DNA of 64,000 nucleotides, taken from the NCBI GenBank assembly GCA_963805975.1, contig CAWDVR010000004.1, positions 525,069 to 589,068 on the forward strand, given 5' to 3'. Below the pieces are notes generated by a model that searched no databases, was not told where the DNA came from, and saw nothing but the letters and a program-made list of their open reading frames with translations. This DNA is from an uncultured Acidobacteriota bacterium. Lineage in GTDB: Bacteria; Acidobacteriota; Thermoanaerobaculia; Multivoradales; SZUA-115. The translations under genes and the position numbers were made by a program. Below, in pieces: positions 41,586-61,627 of this stretch. Position 1 is the first letter of the stretch; each line of letters begins with the position of its first letter.

Positions 41586-41855
41586 AGAACGCCTCCAGTC
41601 GCGGATTCTTACCAGGCATACGAAGATGGGGACTGGTTCGGTTCGAGCTCGCAATGCCCTGGGAGGCGCGCAGCGTTACACACGAGTAGGTACCTGGAAC
41701 TCCCACGAAATCCCTTAAATCACTGCCACTGTTGACTTTGGAGTCGGACTGAGTATGTTCTTGTCCCATGAGCTACGCCCGAGTTGCGCGCCCACTGCAT
41801 GCCCCTCGCATGCCGTGGAGCGTGCCCGAAGGCGGCCTCGAACAGGGAGGAGAGC

Positions 41856-43088
41856 ATGCGAGTCAAGTTCAGTAAAGCCACTCTTGCCAACGCGAAGCCG
41901 GGTCCGACGCGATACCTTCTTCGAGATACCCGCACCGTGGGGCTCGCACTCAAGGTTGAGCCCTCGGGCACGCGGACCTTCGTCTTCGAGTACCGAGTCC
42001 CCGGCAAGCCGTCGCAGCGCTACAACATCGGCCGCTACGGCGAGCCCTGGACTCTGGAGCAGGCCCGGGCCGAAGCCGGACGATTGCGCTCACTCGTGGA
42101 CCGTGGCCTCGATCCGCTGACCGAGCGGCGGAAAGAGGCCAGCGAGGGCCGCAGTCTGGCAGAGCTTGGCGAGATGTTCCTCGCTCACGTCGAGAAGTGT
42201 GGGCGCCGGCCTGCCACGCTCTACCGCTATCGCCGGCTCCTGAGGCAGTTCATCCTTCCGCGCCTGGGTCTGCTGCGAGTGGATCAGATCGGCGTCGAGC
42301 ACGTCGAGCGCCTCCATGGGGCTCTTCAGAAGACTCCCGTCCAGGCCAACCTGGTCTTGGTGGTCCTGGGTTGCTGCTTGACGCTGGCGGAGCGTTGGGG
42401 GTGGATCCCTCGGGGCTCGAACCCGGTGCGGTGGGTGGAGCGCTATCCGAGGCGCAGGCGCGGGGAGAAGAAGGGCGTGATGCTCAAGCCCGAGCAGATG
42501 GCTCGGCTCTTGGCGGTACTGGACGAGGAGGAGCGAGCCGGGCGTGATCCGCTCGCGATCGGTGCGATGCGGCTTGCCTTCTGGACGGGGTGGCGAGCGA
42601 AGAGCGAGATTCTGCCTCTCCAATGGGCGAACCTCGATCTCGAGGGCGGCGAGGCGAGGCTTCTCGGCACGAAACGGGCCGAGGAGGAGTACCGGATGCT
42701 CTGCGATGAAGCGGTCGCGGTGCTGCGGTCCCTGCCGCGCATCGACGGCAGCCCGTGGGTTTTCCCTGGGATCGATCCTGCGAGGCCGCGTCGAAACCTC
42801 CAGTGGTTCTGGGAGCGGGTGCGCAGGAAGGCCGGCCTGGTGGGCTTGGAGGAGCTAGGTAACTTCCGGCTCCATGACCTGCGTCACAACGTCGTCAGTT
42901 GGGACGTATCGCGCGGGGTGAGCTTGAAGGTGGCGGGCGCCAACGTCGGCCACAAGTGCCAACAGTCCACCGAGGTCTACGCCCACTTCCTGCCGGCTCA
43001 TCTAAGAGACGCGGCCAACGCGCGCTCCCAGGCCATGCGGCAGGCCCTGGAGGCCGCGCAAGGCCGCAGCGAGCAGGAGGAGGTGTGA
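41856..43088 (+). CDS. int: tyrosine-type site-specific integrase (phage integrase family, P4-like with N-terminal arm-binding domain)
   Basis: GGGAGG Shine-Dalgarno before ATG. N-terminal DUF4102-like arm-binding region. Catalytic-domain motifs (LRLHDLRHNVVS, HKCQQSTEVYAHF with the catalytic Tyr). Confidence 0.85.
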   Translation: MRVKFSKATLANAKPGPTRYLLRDTRTVGLALKVEPSGTRTFVFEYRVPGKPSQRYNIGRYGEPWTLEQARAEAGRLRSLVDRGLDPLTERRKEASEGRSLAELGEMFLAHVEKCGRRPATLYRYRRLLRQFILPRLGLLRVDQIGVEHVERLHGALQKTPVQANLVLVVLGCCLTLAERWGWIPRGSNPVRWVERYPRRRRGEKKGVMLKPEQMARLLAVLDEEERAGRDPLAIGAMRLAFWTGWRAKSEILPLQWANLDLEGGEARLLGTKRAEEEYRMLCDEAVAVLRSLPRIDGSPWVFPGIDPARPRRNLQWFWERVRRKAGLVGLEELGNFRLHDLRHNVVSWDVSRGVSLKVAGANVGHKCQQSTEVYAHFLPAHLRDAANARSQAMRQALEAAQGRSEQEEV

Positions 43089-43250
43089 GGATGCCCAGGT
43101 CCAACCAACGCGCTCTAGCAGCCCGTGGGCCGCCTGGAAGCGATGTCTGCTTCGAAGACCGCGGCCCCCAAGCCGCACCCAGAAACCAAGCGGGCCGACC
43201 GAGTGCGTGAACACCCGGCCGACCCTAGCCGACCATGGAGCCGTAACCCC

Positions 43251-43688
43251 ATGACCGACCGAGAGCAGTCTACCGCTGCCGCAATACCTCTACCCGATCC
43301 CCCTCCACCCCCCGAGGAGCCGCCCTCGCCGCCTTCGCCCTTGGATGCCTGGGAGGAGCTCCAGCCCATCCGAGAGACGTTCCTCCACCACGTGGGCAAC
43401 GCCGAGACTCAGCAGGCTCTCCGCGCGATTGGCGATTACTTCTACCAGGCCGTTCTCGAATGGCGGAACTTCCCCGACGCGGAAACACCGATCATCCTGC
43501 TGGAGCTCGAAGCCGTGGCCAAGGACGTGCGCTATCTCCAGGGCTTTCTGCACCACACGGTGGCCGACGACGGCCGGGGCACTCTGGCCGATGCCCGGTA
43601 CGAGCGCTGGCTCAAGGTGAAGGCCGAGGAGTGGGCCGACACCCTCGGCGAGGTCGCCACCGAGATCGAGAAGGCGGTGGCGGAATGA
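43251..43688 (+). CDS. hypothetical island protein (Pro-rich N-terminus, helical C-terminus)
   Basis: ORF with PLPDPPPPPEEPPSPPSP followed by a helical region. An alternative GTG start at 43125 is possible. Confidence 0.4.
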   Translation: MTDREQSTAAAIPLPDPPPPPEEPPSPPSPLDAWEELQPIRETFLHHVGNAETQQALRAIGDYFYQAVLEWRNFPDAETPIILLELEAVAKDVRYLQGFLHHTVADDGRGTLADARYERWLKVKAEEWADTLGEVATEIEKAVAE

Positions 43689-44511
43689 AGCCCGCCTGCC
43701 GGAGGTCCGAGCGCCTCCAGCGACCCACCTAGAAACACTCTCTACGCCGCCCGGGCCTCCAGGAAACAGGAGAGCCCGGCGGCTTCCCCCAGCTCTCCGA
43801 AACACGACCTGTCGGACCACTGGAGGCCACCTGAGGACGCGCTGCCGGAGGGAGGGGACTCGCGAGGCCCGCCCCAAGCTGCGGCTGGAGTGGCCGTCCC
43901 TCGCAGACTCGGGTACGCGCCAGGCGCTCCGCACGCCCCACGCCGGCGGCCCCCCTCACCTCGGCCCTGCCGCCGTCCTGGGGCGTGCTGTGGGTCGCTG
44001 TCCGGGAATGGCCATTCCCGGACCTGTCGCTCGGCCAGCCTAGCCTTGGCCCTCGCTGTGCGAGGGCTTGGACATAACGCGTGGCGCTATGTCAACTTGG
44101 GCGGGGTGTCAGGGCCTGCGGCCGGCCCCGGCTTCGGCATCTCGCCGGACACTCTATGTCAGTGTTTGTTCGCGGATTCTGAGTCAGGATCAGCAGAGTC
44201 GCTCTAAGCTCAAAGGATCTATTTACGCCGGCTTGATCGAGTGGCCTATCGGGCCTAGATTGACGGCATACGCTTAGCATGCGGTCTGGCGGACGACAGA
44301 AGGCTAGTTAGCGGACTAGCCCGACAGGGCGATCCTGACTCGCGGCGGGGCGAAGATGTCAGGGGGCGAGAACTATCCTCGCCCGAACTCGGTCCGTGTC
44401 GCAGTCACCCAACGGGTTAGCATCAGTAGCGGAACGCGCGTTCTGCGGTTCTGTCTGCTGCAGGCCCCGAGTTGGCCGACCTTTGCGATTCGAGACGATC
44501 GAACGATTCCC

Positions 44512-44703
44512 CTACCGGTCCTTGTTGCCCTTGCGGTACTTGTCGCCAGCCGCCTTATCTGCCCCATCCTTACTGACGCCTTTTCCAGAGTAGGTTGCGC
44601 CCCCTTTGTGGATCGTAGTCTTGTGAGCTTCGCCGATTCCCGTCCCGAGGAACGACGCGCTCATACGGCTGACCTTGTCCGGGCGACTACCCTTTTTGCT
44701 CAT
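44512..44703 (-). CDS. small basic Gly/Lys-rich protein (KGG-repeat stress-protein-like?)
   Basis: 63-aa ORF with a strong AAGGAGG Shine-Dalgarno 7 nt upstream of ATG. Sequence is rich in K/G/D with HKGGATYSGKG. Confidence 0.45.
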   Translation of the reverse strand: MSKKGSRPDKVSRMSASFLGTGIGEAHKTTIHKGGATYSGKGVSKDGADKAAGDKYRKGNKDR

Positions 44704-44790
44704 GGAATCCTCCTTTGATCACCGGCCGAGGGTATCACCCTCTCTGAGGCTGTGGCTTGCTGGCCACCGCTTTCTTAGACCGCTCACTTC

Positions 44791-45366
44791 TCATCGCAGT
44801 ATGGCAATTCGGGCTACAGACGCGACCAAGCTGCCGGCGCCAACCGCGATGGGTACCCACCGCTCAAGAACGGCACGCACTGAAAGAACTCGGAAGTGCT
44901 GATCGATCTCGGCACGAAAGAGCCGTGTGAACTCAGCGCGCTTCCCGCCCAGCCAGACCTCGAACTCTTCAGGATTCTCGTCTGGTTCCGGCGCGAGATT
45001 CGTGTACTGAGCGGCTAGCCTTGCGGCGGAACTTGAAAAGACACGCTCGCGGTCCATGGCCCAAGCCTTTAGATCGGCCGTGCTGTAGATCCAGAATGCC
45101 GTCAGTAAGTAGATCTGCACCGCGCAGAGAACTCCAAGCAGTCTGCCGGTATCACCGGCCGAGAGTTCGACGCCCAATGCATCGATCCTGGAGGGGATCA
45201 CCCCTCCAACCGCGACCACGAGTTGCGTAACGCTGACGGTTAGCAATGCCCGCCTCTCTTTGCGCGACTCCTCTGACAGAGGATCTACGAGGGCCCTCGC
45301 CTCAGTGATTTCGGCCCGTTCTTCCTTTTCCCAGATCTTCGGCATCGGTTCCTCATTGCCGGCCAA
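44791..45366 (-). CDS. hypothetical membrane protein (two predicted transmembrane helices), island cargo
   Basis: 191 aa. Transmembrane segments LLTVSVTQLVVAVGGVI and LLGVLCAVQIYLLTAFWIY. Lies 25 nt downstream of the preceding cargo gene on the same strand. Confidence 0.5.
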   Translation of the reverse strand: MAGNEEPMPKIWEKEERAEITEARALVDPLSEESRKERRALLTVSVTQLVVAVGGVIPSRIDALGVELSAGDTGRLLGVLCAVQIYLLTAFWIYSTADLKAWAMDRERVFSSSAARLAAQYTNLAPEPDENPEEFEVWLGGKRAEFTRLFRAEIDQHFRVLSVRAVLERWVPIAVGAGSLVASVARIAILR

Positions 45367-45391
45367 CGGCTACCCGTCTGATCGCGTGGCG

Positions 45392-46246
45392 TCAGCCGCT
45401 CGCTCCAGCCGGTTGATTGGGCATCTTTAGGGCGCCCTTCTCTTCAGGCCAAGCTCGCTCAAACCAAGAATAGTGAGCTCCGTCCGGATCCTCGAAGTCT
45501 TCGCACGCCACCCAGATCTCCGCCTCGGGCCTCCTCGCTAGGCTCGCGACCAAGGCTCTCCACCAGGCTTCCCCGGCGTGTGCAACGGAGCCTTGCGGAT
45601 CAAGCAGCACGACTTGGCGATCGTTGCTGTACGCCGCAAACTTTTTCATGGCCGAGGCAAGGAGTCTCTCGAGCTCAGCTGTGAGCTCCGCGGGAATCGG
45701 CCTCGGCGCCTGCCACATCTCCAGCGGCAGCAGGAATCTCACGCTGGTCTCGTGGGCGTACTCATCAAGATCTGATTCGCGAAGGTGCCGCAGACTCCAG
45801 TTCGGCTGGCCCCTCTTCTCGATCCCCTGGCCAGCCTCCAGAACCGACCAGTGCTCTGCAACGATTCGTGCCATCTGCCCCACCGTCTCCTCAATCTCCG
45901 CTCTCCGAGTAGGCCGATCGCCGGATATTGCGAGCTCATAAGGGCCATCGAGCACGGCAGTTGGGAGAGCTGCACGAAGGGCACCAATCAGGGCATGATC
46001 TGACGAATGTCGGACTACGTACTCGGCCGGCCACACAAGGCACTTCCGCTCGATAACCATCCGACCCCTGCATCGGTCGCAGTACAGTGCTTCAGGCTGG
46101 GGCGTATCCCGGATCCGTATGTCGAGACAAGTGACGTGCTCATACGCAGAGCCCTCGACATCGTTAAGCTGTTCGACTAAGGGCTGAACGCGCCAGAACT
46201 CGCAACCGCCACTCTCGGGTAAACAGCTCATTAGTCCCCCACGCAC
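45392..46246 (-). CDS. hypothetical protein with N-terminal Cys cluster, island cargo
   Basis: 284-aa ORF in the lower-GC region. N-terminal C...C / CxxC arrangement (CLPESGGCEFW...CDRCRGRMVIERKC). No recognisable family. Confidence 0.45.
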   Translation of the reverse strand: MRGGLMSCLPESGGCEFWRVQPLVEQLNDVEGSAYEHVTCLDIRIRDTPQPEALYCDRCRGRMVIERKCLVWPAEYVVRHSSDHALIGALRAALPTAVLDGPYELAISGDRPTRRAEIEETVGQMARIVAEHWSVLEAGQGIEKRGQPNWSLRHLRESDLDEYAHETSVRFLLPLEMWQAPRPIPAELTAELERLLASAMKKFAAYSNDRQVVLLDPQGSVAHAGEAWWRALVASLARRPEAEIWVACEDFEDPDGAHYSWFERAWPEEKGALKMPNQPAGASG

Positions 46247-46821
46247 GTCGCGCCCAAATCAGTGCTCTGCATTGGACGGTCCAGGCCTCCAGGATCCTTG
46301 AGATCCTCACTTGTTCGTCGAGGTCCTAGAGGGGTTAGGGCTATGTCCATGCGAATCGATTTCGGATGCCAGTACTTAGCAGCATTCTACGCCTACTTGA
46401 ATAAGAGTCAACGAGGCCGAGAGCCCTGGCTTGGTGCCTCGCCCCAAGACCCCGCCTGAGCTCGCTATCGCTCGGCTCTTCCGGCTGCATGAAGAGCGAC
46501 TGAAATACGGTTCACATTTGAACCTTGGTCTCTCTGTCTCACCTCTGGTACCTCTTTGCCCCATGCGCGGAGCCTGGATACCCAACCTCTCGGAGCTTGT
46601 CCGTTCAGCCCTCTTGGAGCGTCCCTCTCAGCGACCGCGGGGGGCCGAGGACGAATCTCGCCCCCTACAGCAAGCTCCTGCGTCCAGCCTCCTCGCCGTC
46701 GGTCGGTCGCTGCGAGTCAACTTCTTGCCGCCGCCTGGGCTCCGAAGAGGAGCCACCGGCAGCAAAGCATTGCCTTGGAGGGTAAGCGACGGATTTCTCC
46801 TCTGGCTCGGGCTCACCGTTC

Positions 46822-46953
46822 CTGACGACGAAGCAAGCCGCCGCGTACCTGCGCCTGGAGCCCAGCACGCTCGAGAGCTGGCGTTCCGTCGGAGGCGGCC
46901 CTGTGTTCCACAAGCTCGGCGGGCGCATCTACTACACCCGCGCCGACCTCTAG
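46822..46953 (+). pseudogene. AlpA/excisionase-family HTH (MerR-like) ORF lacking a canonical start; possibly degenerate xis
   Basis: Translation (F)LTTKQAAAYLRLEPSTLESWRSVGGGPVFHKLGGRIYYTRADL matches the excisionase/AlpA HTH_17 pattern. An in-frame TAA lies about 13 codons upstream of the HTH with no ATG/GTG/TTG between (only a CTG at 46822). The ORF stops right after the conserved RADL. Confidence 0.45.
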
Positions 46954-47116
46954 GCTTGGATTGAGTCCCGGCGTTGCCGATCGACTGCCGAGCACTGGGC
47001 GAGAAGGTCAAGGGATCGTCCTACCGAGCGCTCCGGCTTCCTCGGTCGAACCTCGAAACCGTAACGGTCGGGTGCTGCCGGCCGGTGCCGCTCCGAAGGA
47101 CTCGGAGGAGTCGGCC

Positions 47117-50100
47117 TCACCGCCGCAGGCGTACGCGGGCCTCCTCGCCTTCTGCCAGCACGTCTCGAATCCAGTGACCTGCCCGCTGCGCGATGCTGCG
47201 CCCGAGAGACAAGCTCCAGGTCACGGCGATGTCGAAGGCACGGGGAGCAGCTTCCGCCGAAGCGCGAGCCAGGTTGCCCAAGTGGGAGGCTGCCGCATCG
47301 GGTGGCAATCCACGACTGGAGGCGACCTCGACCCAGGCCGCTCGCCAGGCCAGCTCTGAGACGTCCCGTGGCGGCCGGCCGGGCTCGGGAAGCTCTGCGA
47401 AGGCACGCTGTTGGCCGTCGAGGTGCCGGAGCCAGGTCACGGCCTCGGCCGAGTTGGCGAAGAGCCTGACGGCCTCCTCTGGCCGCAGAGCCTCGCCTCC
47501 GGCGAGCCGCTTCGCCCGTTCCAGGATCTCGGGGGTCAACCGCGCCAGCGCGTCGAGGCCGGCGCGCGGGTCCTCGGTCGGCCTGGCCATGGGCAGTGTG
47601 ATTCGGTGAGCGGGGATCTCGATCAGGAGAGCCGCATTCAGCCGGCGCAGGGCCTCGGGGGAGAGGTCCCCGGCAGCAACCCGCGAGGTGATCTCCGCCA
47701 ACCGCTCGCGGGCCGTGGCCGATTGGATGGCGAGGGCCTCTTCCACGGCTGCCCGCTCCGAAGACTCGACCCGCCACCAGCCGTAGCCGCGAAGCGCCTC
47801 GGCAGGCTCCTGGCGCGTGAGCTCACGGAGCTTCTGCTCCGCACTCGCCGGCCGGGCCTCTCGCGCTTCCGCGCGCTCCAGTAGGAGCTGGGCGACGGTT
47901 CGCTCCTGCAACGACTCCACGGCTTCCGGCCAGCGCTGGGCAAGCCCTCCTTCTGCGCGCAGCCTCGTCCAGTGCGCCTCCAGCTCGCCGAGGTGGGCGC
48001 GACACTCGGCGACGGAAGTCGAGGCGCCTGCCGGCGCCTGGGGCGAAAGCCCAAGCTGGATCAAGAGCCGCGCTTCCCGCCGAATCAATCGCTCGTAAGC
48101 GTTCCAGGTCTCGTCGGGCCGCTCGCGTTCCAGGAGTGCCCAGCCGAAGCGCTCTCGATGGAGGGAGAGCTGTACCAAGGCCAGCCGCGAGTACGCATGC
48201 TCGGCCTGCTCCATCTCTCCCCGAGCGAGACTGTAGGTGTGAGCGAGCGCCTGATAGGCGGAGATCCTCTCCAGTGACGGGGCCGCTTCGATGCTCGCCG
48301 CGGCCGTCTCCACCCGCTGCCAAGCCGAAAACATCTTCCCGCGCGCATCCTCGAAGGCTTGCCGAGCCTCGCGAAGCCTGCCGGCAAGCTCGCCCTCGAC
48401 TACCAGCAACCGGTCTCCAGCCTCCCGCGATCCTCCTGGCTCCCGGGCCAGTGCTTCGGCGATCACCTCCCGATTGACCCTCTGGGCTCGTGCGAGAAAG
48501 TCGTCCACGGGCTCGTAGGTCCCAGCGGCGCCTGGGTCGTGAGGAGACCGCCGCTCTGGAAGTGACAAACGAGCTTCGATGCCGCCCAGACGGCCCGGAG
48601 ATGGAAAGTCAACGCGGGAGTAGTGGAGCGGGATCTCCGCGCGAGCGAGAGGCGCTTCGAGGCGTGGAGTGTCCAAACGTCGTAGCCGCTCGTGTAGATC
48701 CTCGCGGCGTTCGCTGCGCAGCCCGTCGAGCCAGGGCCGCGACGCCGAGAACGGCTCCTCCCGTACCTCGGCAAGCCTCACTCGGACCCGCTCGCCAGCC
48801 GCTTCGAACGAGGTTCCGGGGAGTCGGATGGCATCTCGGAATATGCCCCGCGGCTCTGCGATGCCGAAGCGGTCCGCGAGGCCCTGGCGCAACGCCTGCT
48901 CCTCGTCCTGCGAGAGGGCCTGATGGCTTCGTAGCCACAGGTCATAGCGCTCGCCCGCACGAACCAGGACGGCCGGCTCGAAGCCATGATGGCGCAGAGT
49001 GACCACCTGCTCGGCGGTCAAGTCGCGAAAGGCCACCCTGCGGGACCGGTCCTCGCCGATCCGCCGCGCCAGAATCGCAGCCGCTCCCGAGCGCTCTGCC
49101 CGGCGGGCCTCGGTGAGCGCCTGTTGGAGGGTCAGGCTGCCCCGCGATGGGTCGAGCAAGCGAGCCTCGACCCGCTGCAAACCCTCTGCGGCCTCCTTGG
49201 GGCTCAAGGGCAGCACGATGTAGCTTCCTCCCGGCATGGAGCGGTCCGTGCGAAGCCAGTCGAGCGAGACGAGCTGCCGGGCCGGCAGCTCCGGCCGTTG
49301 GTTGAGCTGCCGCAGATCCTCGGCGCCGTCCGGCTCGTGTTGCAGAGCCTTGCGAAGCCTCCGAGGGCGGGAGCCCTGCTCGGGTGAGCCTTGGGAGGGA
49401 GCACTACCTGCCAGACGAAGCACCTGCTCCCGGTCGCGACCGGGATCGTAGGCGAGCTGGAAGGTGGAGACGAGCTTGCCTGCGCGGAAGGCTCGACCGA
49501 GCTGCGACCCCTTGAAGGCTATGCCATCGCGCGAGAAGGAGATCCCTCTTAGCTCACCATCCTTGTCCAAGAGTACGTGCGTCGAAAACCCTCGGGCTCG
49601 TAACGTCGCCAGAAACTCAGCAAGGGTCCGTGCGTCCCTCGCCACCTGGGCCACTTCCACCTGAAACACGGCCCGCATCGACTCCTCACCCTGCGCGGCG
49701 CGCTTCATCTCGCCTTGGCTGGGACTCTTGAGGAACGCCGCCTCGGGCGGTTCGACTCGCACGAGGTTCCATCGGTTCTCGATCTCGCGGGCGATCCGTA
49801 CACAGCGCAGCTTGTCGAAAGCCTCGGAGATTGGCTGGCCCTCCCAGGTCGTCGGTGTGGTCACGAGGTGCACGTGGTCGTTGTCGGTGTCCTTGTGGAG
49901 GAAGGCCACGTAGGGCGCTTCGCCGTAGCCCATCCTTTGGAGGAAGAAACGCACCGCCTCTCGCATCTCGTCGTCCGGCCGATGCTCGCCGGTCGCGTAC
50001 GAGAGGACGAAATGCTTCACGAACTGCTTCTTCCTGGACCGATAGGTACTGTTGACATCCGTGATCCAGCTCGCCCACTCGCTGGGGGTGGAGCCTGGGA

Positions 50101-50200
50101 TGTTGGCGTCCAAGAGAAAGGCGTTGGGTCGTGCCGTGCGCCCAAGGTAGTCGATCAGCCGCCGAGGCTGCGAGCCCACCTTGCACAGCTTCACGATCAC
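47117..50200 (-). CDS. MobA/VirD2-family relaxase (mobilisation nuclease) with ~700-aa C-terminal extension
   Basis: N-terminal relaxase domain (FVKHFVLSYATGEHRPDDEM...APYVAFLHKDTDNDHVHLVTT) including the His-rich metal-binding motif. 1027 aa. Start overlaps the mobC stop. Confidence 0.8.
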   Translation of the reverse strand: MIVKLCKVGSQPRRLIDYLGRTARPNAFLLDANIPGSTPSEWASWITDVNSTYRSRKKQFVKHFVLSYATGEHRPDDEMREAVRFFLQRMGYGEAPYVAFLHKDTDNDHVHLVTTPTTWEGQPISEAFDKLRCVRIAREIENRWNLVRVEPPEAAFLKSPSQGEMKRAAQGEESMRAVFQVEVAQVARDARTLAEFLATLRARGFSTHVLLDKDGELRGISFSRDGIAFKGSQLGRAFRAGKLVSTFQLAYDPGRDREQVLRLAGSAPSQGSPEQGSRPRRLRKALQHEPDGAEDLRQLNQRPELPARQLVSLDWLRTDRSMPGGSYIVLPLSPKEAAEGLQRVEARLLDPSRGSLTLQQALTEARRAERSGAAAILARRIGEDRSRRVAFRDLTAEQVVTLRHHGFEPAVLVRAGERYDLWLRSHQALSQDEEQALRQGLADRFGIAEPRGIFRDAIRLPGTSFEAAGERVRVRLAEVREEPFSASRPWLDGLRSERREDLHERLRRLDTPRLEAPLARAEIPLHYSRVDFPSPGRLGGIEARLSLPERRSPHDPGAAGTYEPVDDFLARAQRVNREVIAEALAREPGGSREAGDRLLVVEGELAGRLREARQAFEDARGKMFSAWQRVETAAASIEAAPSLERISAYQALAHTYSLARGEMEQAEHAYSRLALVQLSLHRERFGWALLERERPDETWNAYERLIRREARLLIQLGLSPQAPAGASTSVAECRAHLGELEAHWTRLRAEGGLAQRWPEAVESLQERTVAQLLLERAEAREARPASAEQKLRELTRQEPAEALRGYGWWRVESSERAAVEEALAIQSATARERLAEITSRVAAGDLSPEALRRLNAALLIEIPAHRITLPMARPTEDPRAGLDALARLTPEILERAKRLAGGEALRPEEAVRLFANSAEAVTWLRHLDGQQRAFAELPEPGRPPRDVSELAWRAAWVEVASSRGLPPDAAASHLGNLARASAEAAPRAFDIAVTWSLSLGRSIAQRAGHWIRDVLAEGEEARVRLRR

Positions 50201-50598
50201 GGCGACTCTCCAGCCGCCCTCTCGCCACCCAGCACGGCGAAGATTGTCTCCAGGAGCAGCCGAAGCCTCTCGAGGGTCGGAGCCAGGGCCTCCGGCGCCC
50301 GATGGGTGTAGGTGAGGACGAGAAGTTGGTTGAGATTGTTGCCCAGCCGGTTGAGCTCCCCGATCAGGCGCAGGTCGACCGCGGAGCGTGCGGGGCGCAC
50401 TCGGTGTCGCAGTCCTAGCTCTCGGAGGTAGGAGGAGACCGCCAACCCTGCCGCAGTAGCCGACTCCTCAAGCGTAGCGAGCTCCGTGGGTGAGAGCCGA
50501 ACTCGACAACCGAGGTTGCGCCGCTCAGGCTCGGGCAACTGGGGCCGGCCTCGCTGGCGAGGTCGGACACCCGATCCTTGGCGCAGTGTGTCGCTCAA
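50197..50598 (-). CDS. mobC: MobC-family relaxosome accessory protein
   Basis: Signature (LIGELNRLGNNLNQLLVLTY) plus N-terminal RHH-like region (VRLSPTELATLEESA). 133 aa. Confidence 0.8.
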   Translation of the reverse strand: MSDTLRQGSGVRPRQRGRPQLPEPERRNLGCRVRLSPTELATLEESATAAGLAVSSYLRELGLRHRVRPARSAVDLRLIGELNRLGNNLNQLLVLTYTHRAPEALAPTLERLRLLLETIFAVLGGERAAGESP

Positions 50599-50639
50599 CT
50601 CGTCGCCACTCCGGGACCGGGGCAGGAGCGCTCCTCACT

Positions 50640-50830
50640 TTGCGGCTGGTCAAATTTACGGCCGTAAACGCGGCCCGATAGTCGAGGGGTCCAGCCTGAA
50701 AAATTTTGGCCCCAAAATTCGCACAAGTACCTCAGCGAGAGCTGTTCGGTTAGGACTCGCCGGCGTGAAGTTGAAATCGGTCCGCTTCCGTTTACGGTTC
50801 GTAAATCTGCGCCATCGTCTCGGCGAGCGC
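50640..50830. promoter_or_regulatory. candidate oriT / mob promoter region with two related palindromes
   Basis: Perfect 14-bp palindrome TTTACGGCCGTAAA (50664-50677) and related GTTTACGGTTCGTAAAT (50790-50807) immediately upstream of mobC, the usual oriT position. Confidence 0.45.
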
Positions 50831-51255
50831 GGTGGGTCAGAACTCGCCGCAGAAGCCTCTTCCCGAGCGGAGCGAGCGCTTCCGGGGGTCCAGGGGCTCG
50901 CCCCTGGCAAGCGGCCCGTGAGCTTGCGAGCGGGGGTTTTTCGTGCAACGAAAAAACAGCTTGCTCGTCTGCTCCGGATGCGCTCACGAAGGCAGGCTAC
51001 GGTGGCTTCGACAAACCGCGCAACTGTCGGACCGAGGAAGAAAGAAGAGGTTGTATCGAGCTCCTGGAAACCTGATGAATTTCACTCCGTCGAGGAAGCG
51101 GCAGGCACCTCGCTCCAAGGATGCTTACGGGCGCTGAAGACCAATTGAGAGGAGACGGTGGCCCCCAGGCCCGACCCTTGGTGTGTAACTAATGGGCAGC
51201 AATGCAGCACGCACGTGGAGGTGGGTTGGTTTGGATTTGCTAGCATGCGGCAATC

Positions 51256-54200
51256 GTGAACAACCTGGCGGCGGCAGAGAGGCGGGTCGAAGATGCGTTG
51301 CGCACCAGACTGGAACATCTGGACCTCGGAGACCTAGCCCTAGAGCGCTTACCCACGCGCCTGCGAGAGCTCACTCATCTCCGAGTCTTGGCTCTGGGAT
51401 GCCTCCGACTGAGAGACGATGGGACTTTCGAGTGGGACAGCGATAGACAGCCTCCGTCCTTTTCCGACCTGTCAGCCTTGGCCGGGCTCCAAGGACTTCA
51501 GAGTCTGAACCTCAGCTACTGCGGGGGCGTGACGGACCTGTCTGCCTTGGCCGGGCTCCAAGGCCTCCAGAGGGTGGACCTCAGCTACTGCGGGGGCGTG
51601 ACGGACCTGTCTGTCTTGGCCGGGCTCCAGGGCCTCCAGAGCCTGAACCTCAGCTTCTGCAAGGGCGTGACGGACCTGTCTGTCTTGGCCGGGCTCCCAG
51701 GCCTCCAGAGCCTGTACCTCAGCGGCTGCGAGGGCGTGACGGACCTGTCTGTCTTGGCCGGGCTCCCAGGCCTCCAGAGCCTGTACCTCAGCGGCTGCGA
51801 GGGCGTGACGGACCTGTCTGTCTTGGCCGGGCTCCCAGGCCTCCAGAGCCTGGACCTCAGCGGCTGCGAGGGCGTGACGGACCTGTCTGTCTTGGCCGGG
51901 CTCCAAGGCCTCCAGAGCCTGAACCTCAGCGGCTGCGAGGGCGTGACGGACCTGTCTGTCTTGGCCGGGCTCCAAGGCCTCCAGAGCCTGTACCTCAGCG
52001 GCTGCGCGGGCGTGACGGACCTGTCTGTCTTGGCCGGGCTCCAAGGACTCCAGAGCCTGAACCTCAGCTCCTGCGCGGGCGTGACGGACCTGTCTGTCTT
52101 GGCCGGGCTCCAAGGACTCCAGAGCCTGAACCTCAGCTTCTGCAAGGGCGTGACGGACCTGTCTGTCTTGGCCGGGCTCCCAGGCCTCCAGAGCCTGTAC
52201 CTCAGCGGCTGCGAGGGCGTGACGGACCTGTCTGTCTTGGCCGGGCTCCCAGGCCTCCAGAGCCTGTACCTCAGCGGCTGCGAGGGCGTGACGGACCTGT
52301 CTGTCTTGGCCGGGCTCCCAGGCCTCCAGAGCCTGGACCTCAGCGGCTGCGAGGGCGTGACGGACCTGTCTGTCTTGGCCGGGCTCCAAGGCCTCCAGAG
52401 CCTGAACCTCAGCGGCTGCGAGGGCGTGACGGACCTGTCTGTCTTGGCCGGGCTCCAAGGCCTCCAGAGCCTGTACCTCAGCGGCTGCGCGGGCGTGACG
52501 GACCTGTCTGTCTTGGCCGGGCTCCAAGGACTCCAGAGCCTGAACCTCAGCTCCTGCGCGGGCGTGACGGACCTGTCTGTCTTGGCCGGGCTCCAAGGAC
52601 TCCAGAGCCTGAACCTCAGCTTCTGCAAGGGCGTGACGGACCTGTCTGTCTTGGCCGGGCTCCAAGGCCTCCAGAGCCTGGACCTCAGCTACTGCCGGGG
52701 CGTGACGGACCTGCCTGGCTTGGCCGGGCTCCAAGGCCTCCAGAACCTGGATCTCAGCTTCTGCCGGGGCGTGACGGACCTGTCTGTCTTGGCCGGGCTC
52801 CAAGGCCTCCAGAGCCTGGACCTCAGCTACTGCCGGGGCGTGACGGACCTGTCTGCCTTGGCCGGGCTCCAAGGCCTCCAGAGCCTGAACCTCAGCTCCT
52901 GCCCGGGCGTGGCGGACCTGTCTGCCTTGGCCGGGCTCCAAGGCGTCCAGAGCCTGAACCTCAGCGGCTGCGAGGGCGTGACGGACCTGTCTGCCTTGGC
53001 CGGGCTCCAAGGCGTCCAGAGCCTGAACCTCAGCGGCTGCGAGGGCGTGACGGACCTGTCTGCCTTGGCCGGGCTCCAAGGCCTCCAGAGCCTGAACCTC
53101 CGTAACTGTAAGGGCGTGACGGACCTGTCTGGCTTGGCCGGGCTCCAAGGCCTCCAGAACCTGAACCTCAGCTCCTGCCCGGGCCTGATGGACCTGTCTG
53201 CCTTGGCTGGGCTCCAAGGCCTCCAGAGCCTCGACTTCAGCGACCGCCAGGGTGTGACGGACCTGTCTGCCTTGGCCGGGCTCCAAGGCCTCCAGAGCCT
53301 GAACCTCAGCGACTGCCTGGCCGTGACGGACCTGTCTGCCTTGGCTGGGCTCCAAGGCCTCCGGAGCCTGAACCTCTACTCCTGTCGGCCGCCGATCGAA
53401 AACACCGTTCTTCGGAACCTGGTGGCAAGCCCTCGGCTAGCGAGCCTCATCTGCGACGAGGGGGAGAGCATGCCGCGAGAGGTTCTCTCGCATGAGTCCG
53501 ATGAAGACTGTCTCCCACGTCTCCGTAGCTTCTTCGCTGAGATCGACCGAGGCGCAGAGGCGGAGCGGGAAGTGAAAGTGATCCTGCTAGGCAACGGCTG
53601 TGTTGGGAAGACTCAGCTCTGTCGTCGGTTTCGCGATCAGCCTTTCGACGAAGCGATTGGATCGACTCACGGAGTCCAGATCTGGCGGGACGAGCTCCGA
53701 CTCCCATCGCGTGGCGAGCCAGAGAATGCATTTCAGGTGAACTGGTGGGACTTCGGCGGACAGGACATCTACCACGGCACGCATGCGCTTTTCCTACGCA
53801 GTCGCGCCGTGTTCCTGCTTCTCTGGACCCCACAGCTCGAGAACCGCGACGAATACACGGAGCAGGGCATCCCGCTACGCAACCAACCCCTTGCCTACTG
53901 GCTGGACTACGTCCGTACTCTGGCTGGCGACGGCAGCCCCGTGATTGTGGTGCAAAGCAAGTGCGACACCTTCAAGCACGAGCTCTCAGCTCCGAATAGG
54001 CCCGAGGGACTCGAATTCTTCCGCTGTTGCGCCTACAGTGCCGTCACGGATTTTGGCAGAGAAGTTCTCGAAGTCCAGCTCCGCGAAGCGGTGCGCTTCC
54101 AGCTTGAGAAAACCGGCTCTCTAGCCATCGGACACGCTCGCGCTGAGGTTCGCCGCCGGCTCTATCAGATGCGCAGCGAGGACCAGGAACAAAGACCAGA

Positions 54201-55743
54201 GGATCGTCGGCACCGCACTCTAACTCTGGACGAGTTCCGCAGCCTCTGCGAGGAGGTGGGCGGCATTGCCTCGTGGGAGCATGCCCTCGACTACTTCCAC
54301 CACACCGGCGTGGTCTTCTATCGCCCGGATCTCTTCTCCAATCGCATTCTCCTCGATCAGGACTGGGCGCTCGAAGCGATCTACACCGTATTTCATCGCG
54401 GCCGAGCCGCGCGCTGGCTGCGGGACTCTGGGCGCTTCAGCCGCGAGGATCTCTCGATGATGGCCTGGCAACAGCATTCGGTGGAGGAGCAGAAGCTCTT
54501 CCTCGGGCTGATGGAGAGCTGCGGCGTGTGCTTCGCATGCGGTACCGCTTCCCTGGGGGAGACGATCTATGCGGCGCCGGACCTGTTACCACTGTTTTCG
54601 GCTGTGCAAGGGCGGCTCTTCGGCTGGAAGGACGACCCCCAAGCACCGTCCTTGTGGCTCGAGTATCAGTTTTTTCACCCCGCAGTGATTCGCGGCCTGA
54701 TGAGCGCGATCGGCCGCCAGGCGGGAGAGGCCGCCGAGTATTGGAAGTATGGGTTCCGGCTCTGGGATCGCAAGCGAGATGCTCAGATCCTGATCCAGCA
54801 GCATGACACGAGCACCAACGAGACACCGGGACAGGGAGCCCTGGAGCTGACGGCGCAGGGCCGTGATGCACTCGGCCTTCTCCGCGGGATCTGGAAGGAG
54901 ATCCGGCAACGTCAGATTGGCGAGCCGCCCGAGGAGTTCCTGAGCCTGGAGGGCGTGACCGTTTCGCGCAGCGCCATGGCCAACGCCATGGAGGGCCAGA
55001 CGCACGCGACGGATGGACGAGTGGTGCCTGTTGCGCCGTTCGCAGCCTTCTTCGAGGACCGCGAGCCCGAAGCCACCGGCGGGAGACGGCCCACCGAACT
55101 CCGGCTCGACTTCGATCCCGGTATCCCTCCAGCGGGGGAGAAACTGCCGGAGGTGTTCATCTCCTACGCTTGGGGGGACGACAGCATGGAAGGACGTGTG
55201 CGGACCGAGGTGGTTGAGCGTCTGTGCGCGGCGTTGAAGATGGATGGCTTTGCACCGGTGCGGGACCGAGAGGCTCTGCGGCCGGGCGAGCTCATCTCTG
55301 CCTTCATGAAGCAAGCGGCAAGAGCCAACCACGTCGTGGCCGTGATCAGCGACAAGTACCTGCGCTCACCGTACTGCATGTTCGAGATCCACAGGATCTA
55401 CCAGCAGTGCGAAGCCGAGGCGGAGAGGCTGGCAAGGCGCGTCCTGCCGATCGTCTTACCCGACGTTCGGCTGGCGACTTTCGAGGAGCGAGCCCCGTAT
55501 CTGCGCCTGTGGTCTCGGCGTGAGAAGACGCTCGGGAAGCTCATCCGCGACCCGGAGCTGCATCCCAGTGAGGCCTCCTGGACCGAGTACCGCCTTGTTC
55601 ATGACTTCGCCCACCACGTCGACTCAATCCTCGGCTTCATCCAAGATGTTCTGATGCCCCGGAGGCTTGAGGTTCAGCTCGAGAATGGCTTCGAAGCCGT
55701 GAGGGAGGCCCTACGAAGGCGGATCGCGAGGGATGGAGCGTAA
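51256..55743 (+). CDS. ROCO-family protein: N-terminal LRR array - Roc GTPase - COR - C-terminal TIR domain
   Basis: 1495 aa. About 27 tandem 23-aa LRRs (consensus DLSVLAGLQGLQSLNLSGCEGVT). Roc GTPase with P-loop GNGCVGKT, switch II WDFGGQ and G4 SKCD. About 350-aa COR-like region. TIR domain (EVFISYAWGDD...VAVISDKYLRSPYCMFEIHRIY) with the Glu at the position of the catalytic Glu of TIR NADases. Confidence 0.85.
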   Translation: MNNLAAAERRVEDALRTRLEHLDLGDLALERLPTRLRELTHLRVLALGCLRLRDDGTFEWDSDRQPPSFSDLSALAGLQGLQSLNLSYCGGVTDLSALAGLQGLQRVDLSYCGGVTDLSVLAGLQGLQSLNLSFCKGVTDLSVLAGLPGLQSLYLSGCEGVTDLSVLAGLPGLQSLYLSGCEGVTDLSVLAGLPGLQSLDLSGCEGVTDLSVLAGLQGLQSLNLSGCEGVTDLSVLAGLQGLQSLYLSGCAGVTDLSVLAGLQGLQSLNLSSCAGVTDLSVLAGLQGLQSLNLSFCKGVTDLSVLAGLPGLQSLYLSGCEGVTDLSVLAGLPGLQSLYLSGCEGVTDLSVLAGLPGLQSLDLSGCEGVTDLSVLAGLQGLQSLNLSGCEGVTDLSVLAGLQGLQSLYLSGCAGVTDLSVLAGLQGLQSLNLSSCAGVTDLSVLAGLQGLQSLNLSFCKGVTDLSVLAGLQGLQSLDLSYCRGVTDLPGLAGLQGLQNLDLSFCRGVTDLSVLAGLQGLQSLDLSYCRGVTDLSALAGLQGLQSLNLSSCPGVADLSALAGLQGVQSLNLSGCEGVTDLSALAGLQGVQSLNLSGCEGVTDLSALAGLQGLQSLNLRNCKGVTDLSGLAGLQGLQNLNLSSCPGLMDLSALAGLQGLQSLDFSDRQGVTDLSALAGLQGLQSLNLSDCLAVTDLSALAGLQGLRSLNLYSCRPPIENTVLRNLVASPRLASLICDEGESMPREVLSHESDEDCLPRLRSFFAEIDRGAEAEREVKVILLGNGCVGKTQLCRRFRDQPFDEAIGSTHGVQIWRDELRLPSRGEPENAFQVNWWDFGGQDIYHGTHALFLRSRAVFLLLWTPQLENRDEYTEQGIPLRNQPLAYWLDYVRTLAGDGSPVIVVQSKCDTFKHELSAPNRPEGLEFFRCCAYSAVTDFGREVLEVQLREAVRFQLEKTGSLAIGHARAEVRRRLYQMRSEDQEQRPEDRRHRTLTLDEFRSLCEEVGGIASWEHALDYFHHTGVVFYRPDLFSNRILLDQDWALEAIYTVFHRGRAARWLRDSGRFSREDLSMMAWQQHSVEEQKLFLGLMESCGVCFACGTASLGETIYAAPDLLPLFSAVQGRLFGWKDDPQAPSLWLEYQFFHPAVIRGLMSAIGRQAGEAAEYWKYGFRLWDRKRDAQILIQQHDTSTNETPGQGALELTAQGRDALGLLRGIWKEIRQRQIGEPPEEFLSLEGVTVSRSAMANAMEGQTHATDGRVVPVAPFAAFFEDREPEATGGRRPTELRLDFDPGIPPAGEKLPEVFISYAWGDDSMEGRVRTEVVERLCAALKMDGFAPVRDREALRPGELISAFMKQAARANHVVAVISDKYLRSPYCMFEIHRIYQQCEAEAERLARRVLPIVLPDVRLATFEERAPYLRLWSRREKTLGKLIRDPELHPSEASWTEYRLVHDFAHHVDSILGFIQDVLMPRRLEVQLENGFEAVREALRRRIARDGA
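51472..53360 (+). repeat. tandem 69-bp coding repeats (LRR units) organised in a 483-bp higher-order unit
   Basis: Marker CAGCTTCTGCAAGGGCGTGACGG recurs at 51651, 52134 and 52617 (483-bp spacing, 7 LRRs per unit), with near-identical DNA between copies. The antisense ORFs 51472-53355 and 51585-52628 are artefacts of this repeat. Confidence 0.9.
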
Positions 55744-56157
55744 GTTCACCTTCCGCCGGACGCGATGAGAACGGGCCTTGATGACACCCTGCTGCCCTAC
55801 TGAAGGGTCGCCAGAGAAGTAGACATCGACCGCGACTTGAGAACCCTCAAGATCGCATGCTGAGCGCATGCCGATGTCGCGCGGCAAGAGAATGCCTTCG
55901 CCGCCATCTCAGGAAGTTATAGATTCGATGGGGGCTTAGCGTGGCCCTCATCCGAGCCGTTCATCTCATACTGAGATCGCAGCGTTACCCGAAGGGGGCG
56001 TCGAGCACCGCATCAGGGCCTTGCGAGCTCGAACCGAACCGCCAGACCGGGTGTGCTTGGTTCCCGCGCCGGCCCTCGTGTACGCTTTCCATGCATGGCC
56101 GTGCATGAACGTTTTTCTTTCCCTCTTTGCCGTCTATCTACCCTGGAGGCCCTCACC

Positions 56158-57033
56158 TTGAGACGGACCCACACCGCTTGGCAAGTGCTCCGCCTGCTCG
56201 TCCCCGCTCTCGTCCTGGTCGCTGCCTCGGCCGCCCAGGCCCAGGAAGAAAAGAAGCTCGGCTGGTCCGACACCGCCGAGCTGGCGCTGGTGGCCACCGC
56301 CGGCAACTCGGAATCGTCCACCCTCGGCCTCAAGGACACCCTCTTCCACGGCTGGGAGAACGCCCGCTTCCAGCTCGACCTGGGAGCGCTGCGGGCCAAG
56401 ACCAGCACCTTCAGCCGGACGGCGATCGGCACCGGCGCCGGGGACTTCGTGCTGATCGAGGACGAGGAGAGCAAGCTCACGGCCGAGCACTACTTCCTGC
56501 GCGGCCGGTATGAGAGGGACCTCTCCGCGGCCTTCTACTGGTTCGGGGGCGCCGGCTGGGAGCGCAACGAGCTCGCCGGCTTCAGGAGCCGCACCTCGGC
56601 CGTCGGCGGCGTGGGCCGGGTGTGGCTCGCCGGCGAGACGGCGCGCTTCAAGACCGACGCCGGTCTCACCTTCACCGACCAGGACGATGTCACGGACAAT
56701 CCCGCCGCCGACTCCCAGTTCCTGGGCGTTCGCCTCTCCTACGACTACTGGCGCAGGCTCACTGCCTCGACCGAGTACGCGAGCGTGCTGATCGTGGACC
56801 TGAACGCGGACGAGACCGACGACCTGCGCGCCGACTTCACCAATTCGGTGGCAGTGTCGATGTCCGAGCGCCTGGCTCTCAAGGCAGGCCTGCAGCTCCT
56901 GTTCGACCACCAGCCGGCCCTGGCCGCGGTGCCGATCATCCGCCCCGACGGCACCCCGACCGGTGCCGTGGCCTTCGCCGAGCTCGACGACCTGGACTCG
57001 ATCTTCACCGTCTCCCTGGTCGCCAGCTTCTAG
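56158..57033 (+). CDS. outer-membrane beta-barrel protein, DUF481 (YdiY-like); start TTG (or ATG at 56095)
   Basis: GGAGG 10 nt upstream of TTG gives a typical signal peptide (RRTHTAWQVLRLLVPALVLVAASAAQA). DUF481-like alternating beta-strands, ending in F. Confidence 0.7.
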   Translation: MRRTHTAWQVLRLLVPALVLVAASAAQAQEEKKLGWSDTAELALVATAGNSESSTLGLKDTLFHGWENARFQLDLGALRAKTSTFSRTAIGTGAGDFVLIEDEESKLTAEHYFLRGRYERDLSAAFYWFGGAGWERNELAGFRSRTSAVGGVGRVWLAGETARFKTDAGLTFTDQDDVTDNPAADSQFLGVRLSYDYWRRLTASTEYASVLIVDLNADETDDLRADFTNSVAVSMSERLALKAGLQLLFDHQPALAAVPIIRPDGTPTGAVAFAELDDLDSIFTVSLVASF

Positions 57034-59495: not shown

Positions 59496-60053
59496 GGTCG
59501 GGCTCCTCGAAGCGTCGCGCGGCGGCGCTGCGGACTAGAACGAGCGGTGGGAGTGCGCCGTGAAAAGGCGGCGGTTTTCAGTGGGTGCGAAACCCACCCG
59601 GCAACTGGTCGCTCCAGCCGGTAGCAATCGGAGCGGTGGTGGAGGCAACGAAGCCATCGAAGCCTTCGATGAAGAGGGTCGCCTTGGGCGATCCGGCGAC
59701 CCTGCAGGCCGAAACGTGAGTGAACGCCGAGCAAGCCTCGAAACGTTCGATGTGGGAGCCGACCCGTTTTCCATTCGGGGAAGGCCGTGGTTCCTGGACG
59801 GGATGAGCGACAGCATCCAGGGGTCCCACCGGGGTACTGGCGTCGGCATGCAGGGAAGAGGGAACCGAGCGCAACACGGGAAGCCCCAGCGGTGCCGGAG
59901 CGTGTCCGGCAACCGACAGCCCGCGAGGGTCGGGTTGGGCCGTCTGGGGTGGCGGGGAGGCCCGTAGTAGCGAGGAAGCCGGGTAATGCCGGTGGAGCGA
60001 AGGGGCCTCAGGGCAGGGTCAACGCAGGACGTAGCGAGAGCCGGAGATTGGCG

Positions 60054-61379: not shown

Positions 61380-61391
61380 TGTCCTGTCCGA

Positions 61392-61424
61392 GAGCCGGAT
61401 GCGGGAGATCCGCACGTCCGGTTC
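61392..61424 (+). ncRNA. group II intron domain V (catalytic hairpin)
   Basis: GAGCCGGAUGCGG-GAGA-UCCGCACGUCCGGUUC: AGC triad, 2-nt bulge and GNRA-like loop as in canonical domain V. Confidence 0.8.
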
Positions 61425-61627
61425 GACGAGCGGGGAAGAGGAGACGGAGCTATGGCGGAGACTGAGGCACCGGCACTACGGCGAAAGCCGCCGGCAACAG
61501 CTACTCCCTCGGCCTGGAGCTACCGCGCCTCTCCTCGACTCTACGGCCTGGGTTTCGTCGCCGCCGGGCTTGACGCTTGCGCATTGCGTTGATAGAGGTC
61601 CGTCAAATAGGCGGAGGTCTGACAGCC

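Follow-up and report, generated by a model that had tools for sequence, protein, structure and literature searches.

Proteins that join leucine-rich repeats (LRRs) to an AP-GTPase domain (equivalent to Roc), a COR domain and a TIR domain were predicted to be counter-invader systems by Kaur, Iyer, Burroughs, and Aravind (eLife 2021; PMC8195603). According to that study, the N-terminal LRRs of these proteins evolve rapidly and the C-terminal effectors vary, TIR being one of them (Fig. 6D and source data). The entry "AP-GTPase+COR+TIR" occurs 567 times in the source data (in two columns in the rows shown) and represents hundreds of proteins, including Npun_F6039 of Nostoc punctiforme and an example from Sphaerotilus natans; the authors tie such systems to bacteria of multicellular habit (PMC8195603). 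In the classical Roco literature, as covered by a 2019 review, the known prokaryotic Roco proteins are all simple LRR-Roc-COR proteins, and TIR is not mentioned. Here we describe an LRR-Roc-COR-TIR protein (ROCO-TIR) encoded in a 64-kb window, the whole stretch of DNA analyzed, from contig CAWDVR010000004.1 (assembly GCA_963805975.1) of an uncultured Acidobacteriota bacterium, where its gene is carried by a proposed mobile island. A preliminary description of this DNA had presented the system as undescribed, which does not hold: LRR-AP-GTPase-COR-TIR proteins are already in Kaur et al. (2021) as a predicted counter-invader system. On balance we lean, by a small measure, toward reading ROCO-TIR as a single-chain, NLR-like conflict sensor in which a Roc-COR switch gates a NAD-consuming TIR domain.

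The ROCO-TIR gene (51256..55743, forward strand) encodes 1,495 amino acids between a GTG start and a TAA stop, as judged from the list of open reading frames (ORFs), Pfam matches, and homologue N-termini; the preliminary description had placed a single 1,495-aa ORF at 51256-55743, exactly as in the ORF list. An in-frame stop lies 4 codons upstream of the start codon, and residues 3-75 align with residues 4-76 of homologues (N-termini of 15 homologues); the GTG start is therefore considered right. The GC content at third codon positions (GC3) is 0.81 for the whole gene, 0.74 for the Roc-COR part, and 0.77 for the TIR part. A promoter and terminator scan of 50.5-56.2 kb returned nothing beyond chance level. 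All of the motifs singled out earlier were found in the protein, with GNGCVGKT at residue 779, DFGGQ at 832, SKCD at 901, FISYAW at 1301, and MFEIH at 1375, and the proposed series of sensor LRR, Roc GTPase switch, COR, and TIR agrees with Pfam matches to LRR_4, Roc, COR-A, and TIR_2. By inspection, the N-terminus (MNNLAAAERRVEDAL) is devoid of a hydrophobic signal-peptide-like stretch. The product is predicted to be a cytoplasmic protein that combines the sensor LRR, the GTPase switch, and the TIR domain in one chain.

The Roc GTPase domain spans aa 774-904 (53575..53967, forward strand; Pfam Roc, 3e-20) and carries, on the same strand, the P-loop GNGCVGKT (53590-53613), the G3 motif DFGGQ (53749-53763), and the G4 motif SKCD (53956-53967). 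It is directly followed in the same chain by COR, as is characteristic of the ROCO family, with both Roc and COR-A scoring above the Pfam cut-offs. COR-A (aa 982-1110) and COR-B (approximately aa 1132-1259) were placed at 54199..55032 (forward strand) from Pfam, profile, and AlphaFold2 (AF2) model evidence. Pfam matched COR-A at 4.4e-15 over aa 982-1110 and COR-B only weakly (E=0.12) over aa 1135-1217. The best PDB matches that Foldseek found for an AF2 model of aa 720-1495 (predicted local distance difference test score, pLDDT, of 74.8) were LRRK2, LRRK1, and MbRoco2 over 550-620 columns. These matches therefore support a full COR-A/COR-B pair despite the weak COR-B hidden Markov model score. 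In addition, the Roc-COR-TIR family profile matched CtRoco of Chlorobium tepidum (3dpu, 6hlu, 8r4b) and MbRoco2 of Methanosarcina barkeri (4wnr) at 1e-24 to 1e-27 over positions 30-456.

The G1, G3, and G4 motifs are intact, except that the Asn of G4 is replaced by Ser or Thr family-wide while its Asp is kept. Neither the P-loop (GNGxVGKTQ) nor DFGGQ varies among 105 close and 16 distant homologues from four phyla. The SKCD of G4 aligns with the NKID of MbRoco2 (4wnr) and CtRoco (3dpu); across the family the motif reads S/T-[QRK]-C-D/E, with S-Q-C-D in 95 of the 105 close relatives and T-R-C-D in many distant ones. CtRoco and MbRoco2 thus share with ROCO-TIR the LRR-Roc-COR core and an alignable P-loop, G3, and G4, but they are devoid of a TIR effector and have NKID where the present family has S-[KQR]-C-D. 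Human LRRK2, LRRK1, and DAPK1 resemble it in the Roc-COR-A-COR-B fold and in having the output domain C-terminal to COR. In LRRK2 and LRRK1, however, this output is a kinase (plus WD40) rather than TIR, and identity is only 14-16%. No Pfam match to NB-ARC, NACHT, or AAA was found in the protein at E<=1. Membership in the STAND class was rejected, the central module being Roc-COR; the protein follows an NLR-like logic and is not a member of the NLRs. The earlier proposal that a Roc GTPase takes the place of a STAND ATPase as the switch fits both the Roc match and the lack of NB-ARC and NACHT matches.

The TIR domain (aa 1300-1429; 55153..55542, forward strand; Pfam TIR_2, 1.2e-14) is followed by a helical extension that reaches almost to the C-terminus (55543..55740, forward strand), was recognized from AF2 secondary structure, and is kept together with TIR in relatives. 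The AF2 model of the TIR part (207 aa) had a pLDDT of 91.5, with helices up to residue 206, and library matches to a COR-B + TIR query cover positions ~160-360, which correspond to TIR plus the helical extension. In Foldseek, the best matches of the TIR model were the TIR domains of RPS4, RUN1, L6, RPP1, Roq1, SPARTA, and AbTir; for RPS4, RUN1, L6, AbTir, and SPARTA the probability was 1.00 and the target-normalized TM score (TMt) was 0.45-0.65, in agreement with a TIR fold. The family profile matched the plant TIRs L6 and RUN1 at ~1e-8 to 1e-7. Structure prediction thus gave LRRK2, LRRK1, and MbRoco2 for Roc-COR and NADase-type TIRs for TIR, as the preliminary description would lead one to expect.

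NADase-type TIRs have a catalytic glutamate at the start of helix alpha-C, and Glu1377 (in MFEIH; codon at 55384-55386) occupies this position as the putative catalytic residue. In alignment it coincides with Glu100, the catalytic residue of RUN1, and it faces Ala in the structure of the E100A mutant (7s2z). Glu1377 is kept in 99 of 102 close and 16 of 16 distant homologues (~115/118), so the earlier suggestion of a conserved glutamate aligned with the catalytic residue of TIR NADases held up. The conservation of the P-loop, DFGGQ, and Glu1377 over large distances implies, at the level of sequence, that the protein is functional.

Several immune systems are similar in part. Plant TIR-NLRs (TNLs; RPS4, RUN1, L6, RPP1, Roq1) and the Avs and bNACHT proteins share the logic of a repeat sensor, an NTP switch, and an effector, and the plant TNL TIRs, whose catalytic Glu aligns with Glu1377, are structurally the closest to the TIR described here. 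The NLR analogy drawn earlier, from sensor through switch to TIR effector, is in this respect a reasonable one. In plant TIR-NLRs and STAND proteins, however, the switch is a STAND ATPase, whereas here it is a Ras-like GTPase with COR, and the order is reversed relative to plant TIR-NLRs, with the LRRs N-terminal and TIR C-terminal. Thoeris ThsB, SPARTA TIR-APAZ, AbTir, and bSEFIR share the TIR fold and the conserved Glu, and SPARTA and AbTir are among the structure matches. Unlike the Thoeris, SPARTA, and SAVED systems, ROCO-TIR comes without a ThsA, Argonaute, or SAVED partner, and matches to these systems are limited to the TIR portion.

The LRR array (51469..53400, forward strand) consists of 28 tandem 69-nt (23-aa) units with the consensus LSVLAGLQGLQSLNLSGCEGVTD, as delineated by Tandem Repeats Finder, which reported a period of 69, 27.7 copies, and 93% matches. 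Pfam LRR_4 matched 21 stretches of the protein (E=1.8e-108). Positions 51634-52180 are identical to 52117-52663 over 547 nt, an exact run at an offset of 483 nt, or seven 69-nt units, which defines a seven-unit (483-nt) tandem segment duplication at 51634..52663 (forward strand). Judging by its sequence, this duplication is very recent. Among 27 LRR units, 75 departures from the majority codon were non-synonymous and 13 synonymous, a tally that counts repeat units and not independent events; the variants concentrate at unit positions 3, 8, 14, 17, and 19 (5 of 23 positions). The stretch ahead of the P-loop comprises 778 aa here; in 53 full-length homologues its length is 199-581 aa, with a median of 360 aa. 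A strict 23-aa LRR pattern could be fitted 23 times in this copy versus 0-11 times in homologues. The array is therefore unusually expanded and homogenized, with variation focused on a few positions, and it is the longest and most homogenized among the 120 closest relatives. The non-synonymous excess, the 547-nt duplication, and N-terminal lengths of 199-778 aa agree with the rapidly evolving LRRs of the systems of Kaur et al. This pattern fits a fast-evolving binding surface and may reflect one, although it is not proof of it. The exact 547-nt repeat could stem from a very recent unequal crossover or from an assembly problem within a 93%-identical array.

Relatives of the Roc-COR-TIR part are numerous, with 569 found at E<1e-5. 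The best 120 of the 569 relative clusters all have the LRR-Roc-COR-TIR layout, at 50-67% identity, and stem mostly from metagenome bins of Thermoanaerobaculia/Acidobacteriota; more than 100 clusters of the same architecture occur in Acidobacteriota. Homologues bear no other database names than "COR domain-containing protein" or "internalin A." A search for an exact copy of the 1,495-aa product retrieved no record. One-genome-per-species data contained 55 ROCO-TIR loci, two of them in cultured strains (Defluviicoccus vanus Ben 114 and Rhabdochromatium marinum DSM 5261), and five metagenome-assembled genomes (MAGs) carry two loci each. Full-length distant relatives, at 33-44% identity, are present in Planctomycetota, Verrucomicrobiota, and Alpha- and Gammaproteobacteria, and all 16 distant relatives with TIR keep the P-loop, DFGGQ, and the Glu.

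A HMMER search of the whole library with COR-B + TIR (aa 1130-1495) yielded 167 representatives at E<=1e-30 and 1,491 at E<=1e-10. Elsewhere the same TIR subtype with its helical extension is fused to CHAT, iSTAND, VMAP-C, tandem TIRs, or LRRs without Roc-COR. By this comparison of sequences, the TIR effector module is one that moves between different predicted conflict systems. In proteins P0252, P0255, P0312, and P0359, the TIR subtype is joined to LRRs alone, a CHAT protease, an inactive STAND module, and VMAP-C. Six close matches (62-67% identity) without a TIR Pfam match were considered as possible effector swaps and rejected, as they are truncations or sequencing errors: the C-terminal tails of at least four (P0102, P0106, P0112, and P0117) read as frameshifted TIR, and P0103 and P0113 end early. 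The frameshifts in the former four, which lie on long contigs, fall at the start of TIR and could be MAG consensus errors or repeated effector loss by pseudogenization.

Compared to the AP-GTPase systems of Kaur et al., ROCO-TIR has the same architecture: a single gene with N-terminal fast-evolving LRRs followed by Roc, COR, and TIR. Those systems are also described as having several paralogues per genome with different effectors, and related MAGs may share part of this trait, five of them carrying two ROCO-TIR loci. The tables of that study, by contrast, have no entry named Thermoanaerobaculia and only 17 mentions of Acidobacteria, whereas this copy belongs to a Thermoanaerobaculia-type clade. 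It shares 33-44% identity with proteobacterial and planctomycete members and differs from them in being island-borne.

The 64-kb window is chromosomal, with genes for arginyl-tRNA synthetase, a tricorn protease, a TonB receptor, and an extracytoplasmic function (ECF) sigma/FecR pair. The ECF sigma gene (40980-41654, reverse strand) and a DUF481 gene (56053-57033, forward strand) bracket a block of lower GC. Between them lies a proposed integrative mobilizable island of ~14.3 kb (41669..55988), flanked by the 11-bp direct repeat CGCAGCGTTAC at 41669-41679 and 55978-55988; a score of at least 11 was reached in 5 of 200 shuffles. Just outside the direct repeats are the left (41635..41661) and right (56014..56040) arms of an inverted repeat, 20 nt of which (GGTTCGGTTCGAGCTCGCAA) are perfect and 27 nt of which match with one mismatch. 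When the flanks were joined to reconstruct the empty site, the sequence folded as a hairpin at -39.4 kcal/mol (z = -7.7). This suggests that the 14.3-kb island integrated into the loop of a hairpin, which would make the loop, rather than a tRNA gene, the target of the integrase. No Rfam match was found in 40-57 kb. A tRNA gene as the integration site was ruled out, as the 64-kb window contains no tRNA or tmRNA genes. An alternative island boundary between nikA and the ROCO-TIR gene was likewise discarded, since no repeat scoring at least 9 links the left junction to 50590-51270.

The comparison with related genomes agrees with these borders. In three relatives (L060, L062, and L063), homology with the window is lost at 41612-41617, nucleotide identity over the shared sigma/anti-sigma region being 95% for L063 and 82% and 70% for the other two. 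In L060, the longest syntenic relative, the sigma and DUF481 genes are one 283-aa gene apart, versus 14.4 kb here. In L063, which is 95% identical to the window, the contig ends 45 nt past the end of homology, and this terminal stretch has no counterpart at the right junction. The empty site is therefore deduced only from the more distant L060. From the flanking repeats and the synteny it follows that the ROCO-TIR gene is inside the insertion. At least two of L060, L062, and L063 have a different gene at the divergence point, and the intergenic site upstream of the ECF sigma gene looks like an insertion hot spot.

The island carries a P4-type tyrosine integrase gene (41784..43088, forward strand; Pfam Arm-DNA-bind_3 and Phage_integrase; PHROG integrase, 4.8e-48). 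Directly upstream of the ROCO-TIR gene is a mobilization module on the reverse strand, composed of a MobA/VirD2-type relaxase of 1,027 aa (47117..50200; Pfam Relaxase, 1.2e-19) and a NikA-like relaxosome accessory protein (50197..50598; Pfam NikA-like, 2.2e-19). The relaxase has only 8 relatives in a large protein library, 4 of these at 68-75% identity. The region between nikA and the ROCO-TIR gene (50653..51085) is a candidate origin of transfer (oriT) or NikA operator, judged by its sequence features: a palindromic box TTTACGGCCGTAAA at 50655-50668, which recurs at 50791-50805, and two hairpins within a block at 50855-51081. Within the window the box, TTTACGG(N0-1)CGTAAA, is confined to these two copies (0 expected by chance); it is also found at the homologous place in a related element, L059. 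To this element the non-coding block 50855-51081 is 83% identical, and the relaxase and nikA genes are 76.5% identical. Homology to L059 stops just past the block, where an HTH_17 gene stands in place of the ROCO-TIR gene; in this type of element, the ROCO-TIR gene therefore belongs to the variable cargo.

With a recombinase, a relaxase and candidate oriT, att-type repeats, no recognized conjugation genes, and an insertion relative to L060, L062, and L063, the island has the features of an integrative mobilizable element (IME). No type IV secretion or coupling-protein domain was detected in the island ORFs, and the remaining ORFs are without any database match. GC3 of the island genes is 0.66-0.82, compared to 0.85-0.96 for the neighboring chromosomal genes, and the GC content of the island is 0.61-0.66, compared to ~0.70 for the flanks. 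The ROCO-TIR gene has clearly been acquired horizontally via the island here, as its sequence context indicates. Both the mobile-element cargo and the lower-GC setting of the preliminary description are therefore retained, the former on the strength of the integrase, relaxase, and NikA genes and of the different gene in L059.

The remaining island ORFs, in 43125-46964 (e.g., 43125-43688 on the forward strand and 44791-45366 and 45392-46246 on the reverse strand), have the lowest GC3 of the window, 0.66-0.79, and the ORFs at 43.1-46.9 kb had no match in Pfam, PADLOC, or PHROGs. At ~46783-46953 (forward strand) is an HTH_17 (excisionase/AlpA-like) gene in remnant or shortened form, with 78% DNA identity to the HTH_17 gene of L059; it has no obvious start, and a stop follows "...YYTRADL." The L059 gene lies beyond the opposite end of the relaxase module, so gene order has been rearranged between the two elements. 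Beyond the island, the window contains a complete-looking group II intron (59579-61544, forward strand), in which an Rfam group-II-D1D4-4 match (59579-59719; 103.6 bits) is followed by a reverse transcriptase/maturase ORF (59787-61379) and by Intron_gpII domain V-VI (61390-61544).

Island carriage appears to be particular to this copy. When 12 proteins of the island and its flanks were searched with tblastn against 58 homologue loci (+/-10 kb), nothing was found at 1e-5, which rules out the island as a recurrent vehicle of the ROCO-TIR family. The 150 nearest (+/-2) neighbors of 47 homologue loci fall into 171 Pfam families, none of them dominant. The commonest families other than LRRs (LysR, ABC transporters, and methyltransferases) were found three times each, and no integrase or transposase is among the 25 commonest; toxin-antitoxin-like matches are few, and PADLOC matches are scattered, several of them generic. 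An all-against-all BLAST of 583 neighbor ORFs from 48 loci revealed no family at a fixed position that could be a conserved partner gene. An apparent cluster at the "-1" position was rejected as such a partner, since its members are LRR fragments that come from split genes or paralogues. Horizontal movement of the gene fits its varied locations, its occurrence in several copies per genome, and the single clear case of island carriage.

In the mechanism that we propose for the conflict sensor, the LRR solenoid would be the ligand-sensing module, the Roc-COR tandem a nucleotide-dependent switch and dimerization module, and the C-terminal TIR domain a NAD+-consuming effector. An invader-derived ligand, such as a phage protein or a protein of another mobile element, would bind the LRRs and release autoinhibition. 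The nucleotide state of Roc and the COR-mediated oligomeric state would then change, and the TIR domains, tethered just past COR-B, would pair into a composite active site. NAD+ would be degraded or turned into a signal, and growth of the infected cell would stop. By analogy we infer what triggers the protein, its gating by GTP, its NADase activity, and abortive infection as the outcome. The TIR pairing step is included because TIR NADases need TIR-TIR assembly for activity. The Roc-COR switching step is included because CtRoco and LRRK2 pass through a nucleotide-dependent monomer-dimer cycle (2019 Roco review). The conflict-sensor reading is also supported by Kaur et al. (2021), who arrived at this logic independently as a prediction.

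Several results weigh against this reading. Full-text literature searches found no experimental study of a prokaryotic ROCO-TIR. PADLOC-DB v2 has no model for the whole protein and matched the TIR region only (bSEFIR, a weak match at 2.8e-9; SAVED_TIR, 1.3e-3), and none of the island ORFs was recognizable by PADLOC as another defense gene. The inter-domain geometry in the AF2 model of aa 720-1495 is unreliable, with a predicted TM score (pTM) of 0.44. The G4 motif departs from NKxD, so that the nucleotide preference is not certain and affinity or specificity may differ. The LRR units are so uniform (93% nucleotide identity) that the array may be a structural solenoid and not a specific binder. 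Three annotated homologue neighborhoods are of the housekeeping type, with a pst phosphate transporter, polysaccharide synthesis genes, and IMP dehydrogenase, and there was no obvious enrichment of defense or mobility genes among the 150 neighbors of the 47 loci, in counts made without a background control. The defense-island setting put forward in the preliminary description thus stands in one part only: this copy is on an island, while the homologue neighborhoods lack an obvious defense signal and lean against a general association.

The same architecture could serve in a conflict other than that with phages, either in social or multicellular self/non-self cell death or in exclusion or addiction to the benefit of the island, directed against plasmids or integrative and conjugative elements or acting in stabilization. 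The link to multicellular bacteria made by Kaur et al. speaks for this possibility, as do the immediate adjacency of the ROCO-TIR gene to the relaxosome/oriT module of an IME and the scatter of homologues in housekeeping regions rather than defense islands. On the other hand, no copy other than this one is on a mobile element, relatives of the island integrase, relaxase, or NikA being missing from all 58 homologue loci, and the relaxase element L059 is without ROCO-TIR, which puts the gene outside the core biology of the element; moreover, no sequence feature tells the possible triggers apart. We regard such a role as unlikely.

A second alternative leaves the sensor and switch as proposed and makes TIR a generator of a signal (a cyclic ADP-ribose isomer or similar) or a protein scaffold, with a separate protein carrying out the killing or response step. 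The structures closest to TIR, those of plant TNL TIRs and AbTir, belong to makers of signaling nucleotides, and the helical extension past TIR is conserved. However, there is no conserved partner gene in 48 loci and no receptor of the ThsA, SLOG, or SAVED type on the island or among the commonest neighbor families, and single-gene TIR systems generally act by depletion. We hold this alternative to be distinctly improbable.

The protein could also be unrelated to immunity, as a housekeeping signaling ROCO GTPase or as a secreted effector similar to internalin or TcpB. Homologues are named "internalin A" in databases, sub-threshold NCBIfam matches to internalin and Xop LRR-effector models were obtained, and the classical Roco literature presents those of prokaryotes as LRR-Roc-COR proteins without an assigned function. 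Yet the internalin and Xop scores are far under the cut-offs (202 versus 1,050 bits and similar) and come from the LRRs only, the N-terminus shows no signal-peptide-like stretch, the catalytic Glu is strongly conserved, and the gene is patchy, multi-copy, and horizontally acquired, unlike a housekeeping gene; we therefore give a non-immune role very little credence. That this copy is non-functional, or its LRR array partly an assembly artifact, is hardly credible: assemblers are prone to err in regions such as the 547-nt exact tandem duplication in a 93%-identical array, and several close MAG homologues are frameshifted in TIR, but the frame is open over 4.5 kb with intact motifs and a coding bias throughout (GC3, 0.81), and the number of units is immaterial to the domain conclusion.

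The conflict-sensor reading can be extended to a more specific proposal, namely, a working, mobile, single-gene immune receptor in which Roc-COR replaces the STAND ATPase and directly gates a TIR NADase and in which the LRRs are diversifying by ongoing unequal recombination. This fuller version we put forward tentatively, as it falls somewhat short of an even chance. The concept itself was published earlier as a prediction (Kaur et al. 2021), and the value of the present case is that of a well-documented candidate and not of a new concept. Specific to this copy are its carriage by a small integrative mobilizable island and its freshly expanded LRR array.

For more than 15 years prokaryotic Roco proteins have been structural stand-ins for the Parkinson's disease kinase LRRK2, with their cellular role not known. 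Relatives of ROCO-TIR are present in the culturable hosts Defluviicoccus vanus, Rhabdochromatium marinum, and Nostoc punctiforme. If ROCO-TIR is confirmed as a mobile immune receptor, a prokaryotic Roco protein would for the first time have a demonstrated biological function, and the loss of NAD+ would provide a simple enzymatic read-out of the Roc-COR switch. The immune logic of sensor, switch, and effector would then have been built at least twice, once with STAND ATPases and once with Ras-like GTPases.

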